This document shows positions 188 to 2,331 of a stretch of 64,000 nucleotides of DNA, piece by piece. The DNA lies in contig CAWAWS010000003.1 of the NCBI GenBank assembly GCA_963785725.1, positions 128,001-192,000 on the forward strand, written 5' to 3'. Each line of letters opens with the position of its first letter. Position 1 is the stretch's first letter. The stretch comes from an uncultured delta proteobacterium (lineage in GTDB: Bacteria > Myxococcota_A > Polyangia > Palsa-1104). Position numbers and translations under genes: made by a program. Below the pieces are notes generated by a model. The model worked only from the letters and a program-made list of their open reading frames with translations, searched no databases and was not told the origin of the DNA.

Positions 188-262
188 TGGTCAGCGTGGT
201 CGGGATCGAACCGACGATCTCCTGCTCCCAAGGCAGGCGCGTTACCGCTTCGCTACACACTG
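188..262 (-). tRNA. tRNA-Pro(TGG), CCA encoded
   Basis: Anticodon arm CCTGC-CT TGG GA-GCAGG, GGTTCGATCC T-loop, ends ACCA. Confidence 0.92.
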
Positions 263-264
263 AT

Positions 265-500
265 TGGCGTCCCGTGCGGGAATCGAACCCGCGTTCTCGG
301 ATTGAAATCAGAAGGCCTGCCCATTAGTACCTCGCCACAGCAATTTCGACCGGTCTGCGCCGGTCCGCGACGCCCATGGCTTCGTTGCGACTCCTCAGAA
401 TACAACCAGTATTCCTTCGTCCTCGCGCCTCGCCCTGGACGCCGCCTCCTCGGCGGATACCAATCAAAATCACTGTGGCGAGGTACCAGCCGAACGGGAC
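265..500 (-). tRNA. tRNA-Glu (probably TTC) interrupted by a 162-nt insertion at the D-stem/D-loop junction; possibly pseudo
   Basis: 5' part 500..488 GTCCCGTTCGGCT and 3' part 325..265 AATGGGCAGGCC...GGTTCGATTCCCGCACGGGACGCCA rejoin into a Glu-type cloverleaf (acceptor GTCCCGT/ACGGGAC). The anticodon loop has only 6 nt (TTTCAA). Confidence 0.75.
326..487. mobile_element. MITE-like or structured insertion inside tRNA-Glu
   Basis: Perfect 14-bp terminal inverted repeat GTACCTCGCCACAG (327-340) / CTGTGGCGAGGTAC (473-486), extendable to 28 bp with G-U pairs; flanked by TA on the left and CA on the right. Confidence 0.65.
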
Positions 501-502
501 AG

Positions 503-574
503 TGACGCTGGAGAGAGTCGAACCCTTCATTCCCCGACTGAGCATCGGGTGGCCTTCCGTTAGCCGACAGCGCC
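503..574 (-). tRNA. tRNA-Glu(CTC), atypical G33
   Basis: Anticodon arm CCCGA-TG CTC AG-TCGGG; acceptor GGCGCTG/CAGCGTC. Confidence 0.8.
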
Positions 575-578
575 GAAA

Positions 579-651
579 TGGAGGTCCGCCGCGGAGTTGA
601 ACCGCGCCACTGCCGATTTGCAGTCGGCATCACTCGCCGGAGCCGCGGACC
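579..651 (-). tRNA. tRNA-Cys(GCA), short D-arm, CCA encoded
   Basis: GCCGA-CT GCA AA-TCGGC; U73 discriminator followed by CCA. Confidence 0.85.
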
Positions 652-658
652 CGAGCCG

Positions 659-734
659 TGGCGTACCCCCAGGGAATCGAACCCTGCTTGACCCGCTTAA
701 CAGGCGGGTGCCATCCCAGTCCGGCGCGGGGTAC
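659..734 (-). tRNA. tRNA-Asn(GTT), CCA encoded
   Basis: CCCGC-CT GTT AA-GCGGG; acceptor GTACCCC/GGGGTAC, ends GCCA. Confidence 0.88.
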
Positions 735-770
735 GAAGTATTAAGGAGACATAGATCGCGGAAGTGCGAG

Positions 771-841
771 CTCGGGCGCGTGGAATCGAACCACGATGAC
801 GAGATCCAAATGCTCGCGTCCTGCCATTGGACGACACCCGA
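771..841 (-). tRNA. tRNA-Gln(TTG)
   Basis: Starts with U1; anticodon loop AT TTG GA; GGTTCGATTCC T-arm; G73. Confidence 0.8.
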
Positions 842-842
842 A

Positions 843-917
843 TGGAGCGCGGTGCGGGAGTCGAACCCGTCCTCGCTGACTTGGAAGGCCAGGGCCCAAC
901 CGCTAGACCAACCGCGC
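843..917 (-). tRNA. tRNA-Gly(TCC), CCA encoded
   Basis: CTGGC-CT TCC AA-GTCAG; ends TCCA. Confidence 0.92.
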
Positions 918-926
918 CGAAGATCG

Positions 927-998
927 TGCCGCCGGCAGGAATCGAACCTGCACCCAGCCGGTTAAAAACCGGCTGCTCTGCCGCTGAGCTACGGCGGC
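927..998 (-). tRNA. tRNA-Lys(TTT)
   Basis: GCCGG-TT TTT AA-CCGGC; canonical TAGCTCAG D-arm. Confidence 0.92.
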
Positions 999-1009
999 GT
1001 TGCCGCTTT

Positions 1010-1084
1010 TGGTGCGCGCCGTGGGAATCGAACCCACCTTCAACGGATTAAGAATCCGTCGCCTCACCAGTCGGCTTGGCGCGC
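1010..1084 (-). tRNA. tRNA-Lys(CTT), CCA encoded
   Basis: ACGGA-TT CTT AA-TCCGT; ends ACCA. Confidence 0.88.
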
Positions 1085-1180
1085 AATGGAGCTCTCTTCC
1101 GAAAGACGAGAGCTCTCTTCTCATGACGTCGCTATTCGATTATCAAAGCGGACGAAACCAATCGGTTTCGCCCATATTCG

Positions 1181-1265
1181 TGGGCCGCCTGGGAATCGAA
1201 CCCAGCGAGCTCCGCGGAGCGCCTGATTTACAATCAGGCCCGTCTCCATAACGGTCTAACGACCC
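1181..1265 (-). tRNA. tRNA-Tyr(GTA)
   Basis: CCTGA-TT GTA AA-TCAGG with a long variable arm (GCTCC GC GGAGC), as in bacterial tRNA-Tyr. Confidence 0.92.
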
Positions 1266-1273
1266 GGGCGCAG

Positions 1274-1345
1274 AGCGGCCGGCGGGAATCGAACCCGCCA
1301 CTCCGACTTGGCAAGCCGGCGTGTCTCCCACGACACCTCGACCGC
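1274..1345 (-). tRNA. tRNA-Gly(GCC), first tRNA of the array
   Basis: CCGGC-TT GCC AA-GTCGG; GGTTCGATTCC T-arm; U73. Confidence 0.88.
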
Positions 1346-1608
1346 AGGACGCACGAATCCCCTGGCGCGCATTCGAGCGTTCGAGCCCAAATGCGCCTTT
1401 CGGGAGCGCTGGTCTGCCGATGAGCTACGCGGCCGTCAGATGCGGAGCACCGACGGACCGCACGCCGTGAGTCGATCGCGGAAACCCCAATGGTCTCCGA
1501 CGTCGACCTCGCCGTTCGCGCTCATCTGTCCGTCGTGTTTGTCCCGCATCCTCGCTCTCGCGCGCTGCGAAGGCGCGCCTGGTTCTGGTTTCGGTCGCCG
1601 AAACGGCG

Positions 1609-1641
1609 AAGGGCCGGGAACCTCTCGGTTCACCGGCCCTT
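1609..1641 (-). terminator. Attenuator (terminator-like) hairpin upstream of the tRNA array
   Basis: AAGGGCCGG-T-GAACC-GAGA-GGTTC-CCGGCCCTT: 14 bp with a GNRA loop, but only a weak U tail (CGCCGTTTC). Confidence 0.6.
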
Positions 1642-1670
1642 GGGTCGATCCTGTGCTGCTAAGGATCAAA

Positions 1671-1823
1671 CTAAGGGCCGCTATTGTCCCAATCGAGGCA
1701 CGGCTGACGACCATGGAAATTCTCCACGATTCGTCCGCACGTACGCAGACCGGCCACGGCGACGACGCGCGTCGAGCGCGTCGTGTCTTGGCCGTTCCGA
1801 TACAATTTGGTTTCGCTCGACAT
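1671..1823 (-). CDS. Putative 50-aa leader peptide of the tRNA array
   Basis: ATG at 1823 with purine-rich AGAGGGGA about 12-14 nt upstream; the last codons CGGCCCTT are complementary to the 5' arm of the downstream hairpin. Confidence 0.55.
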   Translation of the reverse strand: MSSETKLYRNGQDTTRSTRVVAVAGLRTCGRIVENFHGRQPCLDWDNSGP

Positions 1824-2331
1824 GGAAGAATCTCGTCCCCTCTTGCTAAAGGCTACGACGAATAGAGTCAAGTAAAAATCGAAACTGCATATTCGTTTTC
1901 ATTCTACATACGAGTATTGAATTCATTATTCGCTATTCTTCTCGCGCAGATTCCCGGCGCGCACGAATCGATTGGGGACTGGACGATCGCTCGGCCATTC
2001 TTGCCGCCGGGCCGGCAGCTCCGCGCGCTCCAGCGGCCTCGCATTCCAGCGCTGAGACGATCGAGCCCGCGCTCTCGCTCGACGACGGTGTCGCCGGAGA
2101 TCGTCCTCGGCCATCGCCGCCGGAGGATCAAAGAGATCAGGACGTTAGTATCGCGGTCACGGAACGCCCGACAGCAACGTCGGCAGCGAGCACACGTCAC
2201 GATCGCAGGAGGCAACGGCGCGCGGCGTGGCCGTGACAGCCGGGCGACGCGCGACCCGCTAGGCAGTGCCGGCGTCGGCGGTGTAAGGTCGCGTCGCGCA
2301 GTAAAAGGCGCCATTCAGGGAGACAGAGGCC

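Follow-up and report, generated by a model that had tools for sequence, protein, structure and literature searches.

A leader reading frame with many amino-acid types as a likely ribosome-controlled attenuator of a tRNA array that carries Ro60 and RtcB genes

Leaders of the trp and his type are short, and a single amino acid dominates them. In the whiB7/wblC attenuators of mycobacteria and Streptomyces a long, sequence-variable upstream ORF (uORF) is used, full translation of which gives an intrinsic terminator and stalling on which gives an antiterminator; the M. smegmatis whiB7 uORF contains 19 of the 20 amino acids, only Cys being missing, and its content sets what is sensed (10.1101/2023.06.02.543512). 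WblC activates genes that include six tRNA genes, so tRNA control there is indirect (PMC7157823). E. coli toiL responds to antibiotics from at least five classes (10.1101/682021).

The trn operon of Anabaena is a long tRNA array present besides a housekeeping set, linked to rtcB and induced by translational stress (PMC8421152, PMC10272220), and is controlled by the repressor TrcR on repeats over the -10 box (PMC10272220). The Salmonella rsr-yrlBA-rtcBA operon, with Ro60 and RtcB, is induced by damaged tRNA, RtcR activating it via tRNA halves (PMC7790460). The words 'attenuat', 'leader', 'terminator' and 'Ro60' do not occur in the main text of PMC8421152, and searches of the literature, confined to main texts and thin for subscription papers, found no leader attenuator for tRNA arrays or rtcB. 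A first, sequence-only reading of the locus described here knew of no pan-amino-acid attenuator for tRNA arrays. The whiB7 leader is nearly complete, and direct control of a tRNA array was not found in the searches. Broad amino-acid sensing by a leader is not new; its setting before a tRNA array was not found in print.

The features of the locus, in the window (the whole stretch of 64,000 nucleotides that was analysed, from the genome G000), are as follows.

1843..1871, minus strand: predicted sigma-70-type promoter, TTGACT-17 nt-TAGCAA, by pattern match; a stricter scan did not call it
1671..1823, minus strand: leader ORF of 50 codons plus TAG with all 20 amino acids, from the ORF list and its translation
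1673..1680, minus strand: predicted antiterminator strand CGGCCCTT, made of the last ORF codons and the first base of the stop
1645..1669, minus strand: inner hairpin bringing the antiterminator strands together; its stem is kept among homologs and its sequence varies
1609..1641, minus strand: predicted terminator hairpin of 14 pairs with a GAGA loop, whose 5' arm (1641-1634) is common to the antiterminator
1601..1610, minus strand: interrupted U tail, 5 T of 10; longer T runs stand here in the relatives G004 and G002
188..1345, minus strand: first 10 ARAGORN tRNA genes of the array, which continues past window position 1 to G000:C3:124966
1135..1146, minus strand: boxA-like motif inside the array, by pattern match

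The closest model for the leader is the whiB7/wblC uORF attenuator; by analogy it would work like that family without being a member of it. As there, the uORF lies between the (predicted) promoter and the genes, its peptide sequence varies, and its 3' end is predicted to form an antiterminator exclusive with the terminator. Compared with the intrinsic terminator of whiB7/wblC, the hairpin here is strong and conserved, with a tail that is interrupted in the window copy. Unlike the whiB7 uORF, which is Ala-enriched and gates a transcription factor, the window leader has two Ala in 50 codons and would gate a tRNA array, Ro60 and RtcB directly; leaders of its kind occur in other phyla and show a surplus of amino-acid types. 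The trp/his analogy drawn in the sequence-only reading holds in that ribosome position would select the fold, although whiB7/wblC is the closer model. A leader of the trp/his type itself was rejected (50 codons, no run of one residue longer than two, and tRNA and RNA-repair genes as targets), as was a T-box, since no Rfam model, T-box or other, matched over the leader. Switching of folds by ribosome position would be shared with toiL, which acts on translation initiation and Rho-dependent termination.

The array comprises 20 ARAGORN tRNAs (G000:C3:124966-129345), 10 of them inside the window, which corrects an earlier count of 12 or more. Genes for Ro60 (TROVE and vWA_Ro60 domains) and RtcB lie in the array past the window edge, and a Dps-like gene near it is oriented away from it. 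Like the Anabaena L-array, this is a long one-strand array linked to rtcB, with a dispersed housekeeping tRNA set elsewhere in the genome; unlike it, TrcR-type repeats over the -10 box are not present at the predicted leader promoter. The Ro60 and RtcB genes recall the Salmonella operon, which differs in that a full tRNA array stands in the operon here and that RtcR was not found in G000 (no PF06956 match in an assembly 88% complete); RtcR control as the main reading was rejected. The nearest relatives of the Ro60 are titled Polyangia, Kofleriaceae or deltaproteobacteria, which makes it likely that the DNA is myxobacterial, and a Y-RNA-like element follows the Ro60 gene (L001:13251-13351, minus strand; RF01053 at 40.2 bits against a cut-off of 80). 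The boxA-like motif at 1135..1146 is a candidate; G000's only two matches are in its two arrays, and 2 of 34 other array loci match the narrow pattern.

Several further elements were observed in and around the array. By eye, a 160-nt element with terminal inverted repeats (window 327-487, minus strand) splits an apparent tRNA-Glu(TTC) that ARAGORN misses, and relatives of it lie immediately upstream of the leader of the second G000 array (C39) and within that array. At L001:15555-15750 (minus strand; G000:C3, outside the window) a tRNA-like RNA is interrupted by about 130 nt of inserted sequence; Rfam has no match for it, and the G004 and L119 arrays contain a similar element. Between the terminator and the first tRNA, window 1393-1434 (minus strand) looks by eye like a decayed 5' half of tRNA-Thr, where G004 has an intact tRNA-Thr(CGT). 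The same spacer holds a 37-codon ATG frame (1436-1549, minus strand) with 19 amino-acid types by hand count, which sits within a long hairpin and has no terminator after it. Elsewhere, G000:C8:108000-112200 is AT-rich, carries two tRNA-Tyr copies and differs from the rest of the genome; it may be foreign or mis-binned.

The leader ORF runs, as first read, from ATG at 1823 to TAG at 1673-1671 on the minus strand, contains every amino acid and is the tail of a listed 66-aa TTG frame (1871-1671). All 20 types occur within codons 1-45, codon 45 being the sole Trp, and the longest run of one residue is two. The peptide has no Pfam match, and a functional peptide was rejected because pN/pS of the leader peptides is 0.65-1.45 (about 1) in five families. 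Among the other sense frames of the leaders only 22 of 92 are open. By sequence comparison, the leader reading frame is kept and the peptide sequence is not.

If TTGACT-17-TAGCAA is the promoter, the RNA would start near 1836. The long Shine-Dalgarno spacing raised as a caveat in the earlier reading then takes another form, as GAGGGG would lie mostly upstream of the likely RNA start if 1871-1843 is the promoter. Promoter-like boxes stand upstream of the ATG in 35 of 50 leaders, compared with 4.4% of shuffles, and the C39 paralog has the same pattern; in nine leaders the ATG follows the -10 box by 5-9 nt. No second promoter-like match was found between 1610 and window position 1. Beyond the -35 box, the upstream DNA (window 1880-1940, minus strand) is AT-rich and, as judged by eye, kept in relatives; it is a candidate UP element or protein-binding site.

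Both predicted folds lie where they had been placed: CGGCCCTT at 1680-1673 and AAGGGCCG at 1641-1634 are the predicted antiterminator arms, the hairpin at 1641-1609 has 14 pairs, a GAGA loop and one bulged base, and the GATCCT/AGGATC inner stem (1667-1662 with 1652-1647) appears in the predicted fold. Folding of the leader region has z = -3.2 against shuffles. The U tail is as weak as had been noted (a simple terminator scan makes no call), and in the predicted fold the tail after the hairpin can itself form a hairpin. Pairing was measured as the interaction energy between the last 33 nt of the ORF and the RNA up to the terminator loop, against dinucleotide shuffles; for the window this is -14.5 kcal/mol (z = -2.9, P = 0.013). 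An earlier statistic, the count of paired arm bases, did not separate leaders from shuffles (window P = 0.29). With interaction energy, z ≤ -2 was found in 38 of 47 leaders (L079 omitted for a mis-assigned terminator; five leaders before other genes kept apart, 1/5) and in only one of 80 ordinary G000 gene-end terminators, from a total of 93 (mean z 0.06). When partners were swapped among 12 leaders the own ORF end was strongest in eight, and that of the window ranked second, after a relative. Between families the terminator sequences are wholly different and the ORF ends change along with them; alignment A1 of the leaders carries a register offset of one column between two subfamilies.

A ribosome was modelled as a mask reaching 12 nt beyond the A-site codon. 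In the nascent RNA the predicted antiterminator probability was 0.85-0.98 for the stalls tested at codons 2-45, 0.46 at codon 46 and 0 from codon 47. In the full RNA at equilibrium the terminator has a probability of 0.91-0.97 at every ribosome position, and in the window copy it is more stable than the antiterminator fold by about 11 kcal/mol. The switch would have to be kinetic, because the finished RNA prefers the terminator. The earlier proposal that stalling at any codon gives read-through agrees with the model for the stalls tested at codons 2-45, while the last four codons are predicted to be non-inducing.

The leader is probably a ribosome-controlled transcription attenuator for the tRNA array with its Ro60 and RtcB genes. 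Sequence and comparison give the reading frame, the two folds with their conservation, and the excess of amino-acid types; from these we infer what polymerase and ribosome would do. RNA polymerase would start near 1836 with a ribosome behind it. A ribosome at codons 47-51 would cover 1680-1673, so that the terminator forms and the transcript ends near 1601-1605. A stall within codons 2-45 would instead let the ORF end pair with the hairpin 5' arm before the 3' arm exists; with the antiterminator formed, polymerase would continue into the tRNAs, Ro60 and RtcB. Since almost all amino acids and many decoding classes occur in the frame, it would be enough for nearly any one tRNA to become scarce or be cleaved, or for an antibiotic to act on the ribosome.

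In four bacterial phyla the predicted layout recurs: a promoter, then a short ORF that stops some 25-40 nt ahead of a terminator. In G000, the C39 array, which has a TROVE gene, shares promoter pattern, start, stop register and hairpin, with an ORF of 49 codons and 18 amino-acid types that lacks Gln and Trp. A third copy (G000:C14:191790-193216) precedes a frameshifted EF-Tu paralog, whose frameshifts are perhaps assembly errors; its ORF has 14 types in 48 codons. An array with a related leader is present in two of the four genomes of the genus, the leader of G004, which has a long T tail, showing 20 types in 49 codons and that of G002 showing 18 types in 50 codons. A search with the hairpin pattern matched 44 metagenome stretches and no viral contigs. 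About half of the matches have a short ORF stopping about 27-38 nt ahead of the hairpin, mostly ahead of tRNAs and once ahead of Hen1, and about half are ordinary terminators or chance. The RNA model R1 gave seven weak matches in six of 150 other genomes of the phylum; as on inspection these are hairpins at gene or tRNA ends and not leaders, R1 is specific to close relatives.

A survey of 80 Ro60 loci comprised 38 with at least two upstream tRNAs and enough DNA, 36 without an array and six that were too short. A terminator and short ORF were present at 31 of the 38 Ro60-linked arrays from other genomes (28 strictly, three more by a looser criterion), which belong by title to Myxococcota groups, Actinomycetota (Gaiellaceae, Solirubrobacterales), Chloroflexota and Verrucomicrobiota. 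The leader was missing at the other seven: one truncated contig, two Armatimonadota and four Deinococcaceae. Array-less loci had it in 3 of 36 cases within the 800 nt before Ro60. A blind set was then assembled by a fixed rule, blind to composition, with new loci from relatives of three other genomes; terminator and ORF were found at 21 of its 32 array loci, 19 with pairing z ≤ -2, and at 11 there were none. The check proposed with the first reading gave a positive result: a short ORF is retained in related arrays, and its stop falls within a strand able to pair with the 5' side of the terminator. Apart from arrays, the same leader stands before genes of translation or RNA repair (the EF-Tu paralog, Hen1), and a similar leader precedes genes without a clear link to translation in L112, L113 and L117.

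Two other arrangements were seen among these arrays. Gaiellaceae-type arrays have a conserved, RNA-like spacer of 300-400 nt from the terminator to the first tRNA (L069:4630-5040; same place in L053, L060, L062, L071, L075, L081, L083 and L088), which opens with a tiny frame of about seven codons; Rfam gave no match for the conserved spacers of L069 and L079. Tandem pairs of leader-terminator units stand before Chloroflexota arrays (L045:4300-5100, L072:4880-5300).

The window copy alone is modest evidence for variety. The chance of a complete ORF is 0.016 by base shuffle, 0.008 from 50-codon windows of long G000 ORFs and 0.077 under the strictest shuffle, which preserves codon position; total codon variety (34 against 33.3 expected) is not above chance. 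Variety was examined further in 44 array-linked leaders, whose ORFs and starts were picked by the authors after inspection; the near-identical duplicates L094, L095, L110, L125 and L128 and the truncated L126 were dropped, and 13 leaders not clearly before an array were kept outside. Complete leaders numbered 10 against 0.8 expected, and 19 leaders had at least 19 types against 3.9 expected. Expectation is exceeded in 12 of 16 families (p = 0.0015 once the window copy is excluded). With codon-position composition kept (41 leaders, 15 families) 10 are complete against 1.4 (p = 0.026, or 0.054 without L079), and decoding classes are also in surplus (p = 0.003). In the blind set, which is one family plus one order and so not independent, with several Chloroflexota peptides close kin, 19 of 19 exceed expectation (mean z 1.7), four being complete against 0.4 and 13 having at least 19 types against 2.3. 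There is no surplus in 4 of 16 families, the three arrays of G038 (16-18 types in 70-76 codons) among them; the leaders of L029, L032 and L072 show none, and the L113 leader is complete (68 codons) yet precedes no tRNA. The pan-amino-acid reading proposed at the outset holds as a tendency rather than a rule: variety is above chance across families, typically with 17-20 types. We judge the surplus itself to be real; its purpose we infer.

One purpose is plausible, and we put it forward tentatively: selection on the codons may have favoured coverage of every amino acid and of most tRNA species, making the leader a sensor of tRNA-pool integrity in at least four phyla with no protein regulator. 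Any single tRNA loss, from starvation or from the anticodon nucleases of toxins, rivals or phage defence, would stall the ribosome and turn on a replacement tRNA set and the Ro60-RtcB repair kit. L079, with 20 amino acids and 31 different codons over 31 positions, is the extreme case for such a sensor. The wide content may instead have arisen incidentally, through base composition, RNA structure or the avoidance of runs prone to stalling and not through selection to sense single tRNAs, in a real attenuator that is a general sensor of antibiotic stalls. The borderline result of the strictest null and the absence of Trp, Gln, Tyr or Lys from many leaders fit this, as does the fact that toiL and whiB7 answer several antibiotics without complete amino-acid content. 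We nevertheless consider it unlikely, since the surplus is seen again in the blind set and in decoding classes, in 25 of 44 leaders the coding frame outscores each of the other five and in 11 it draws level, and leaders of the same RNA family that precede the EF-Tu paralog or Hen1 show no surplus, with 14 types.

Attenuation in the window is also to be weighed against control by a protein at the promoter, as by TrcR in Anabaena, with the ORF a small gene or chance frame, the terminator ordinary and the array reached by leaky termination. The AT-rich stretch, conserved by eye, might bind a protein, termination at the weak tail would be leaky, and a TrcR-like half-site with one mismatch lies at 1901-1908, about 30 nt upstream of the -35 box. 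That half-site has no partner, lies away from the -10 box and is among four such matches found in 19 kb; with no TrcR-type repeats over the -10 box, TrcR control was rejected as the main reading. With a peptide that is not conserved and a pairing that ordinary gene ends do not have, protein control in place of the leader is very improbable, although a protein regulator could act in addition to it. Hardly more credible, and if anything slightly less so, is that the leader family works through pausing, Rho or RNA processing and not intrinsic termination, or that the window copy has decayed to a pause site. The self-folding interrupted tail, the dominance of the terminator at equilibrium, the decayed tRNA-like piece in the spacer and frameshifts in the assembly point that way; T-rich tails at the same place in close relatives point the other, and 5 T of 10 is the median for 27 strong G000 gene-end hairpins with TT next. 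Attenuation by ribosome position, the interpretation first offered for this DNA, is thus supported, on sequence and model, by a short ORF and pairing kept in related arrays and by variety above chance.

Among silent tRNA arrays, only that of Anabaena has a known switch (TrcR), and for RNA-repair operons control by RtcR is known. The leader would be a third, protein-free route, and would explain how arrays move between phyla with their control attached. A single reporter would put the role of tRNA arrays within reach of a test. Selection of a reading frame for variety and not for its peptide would be of a measurable type, and would offer a means of finding such switches.
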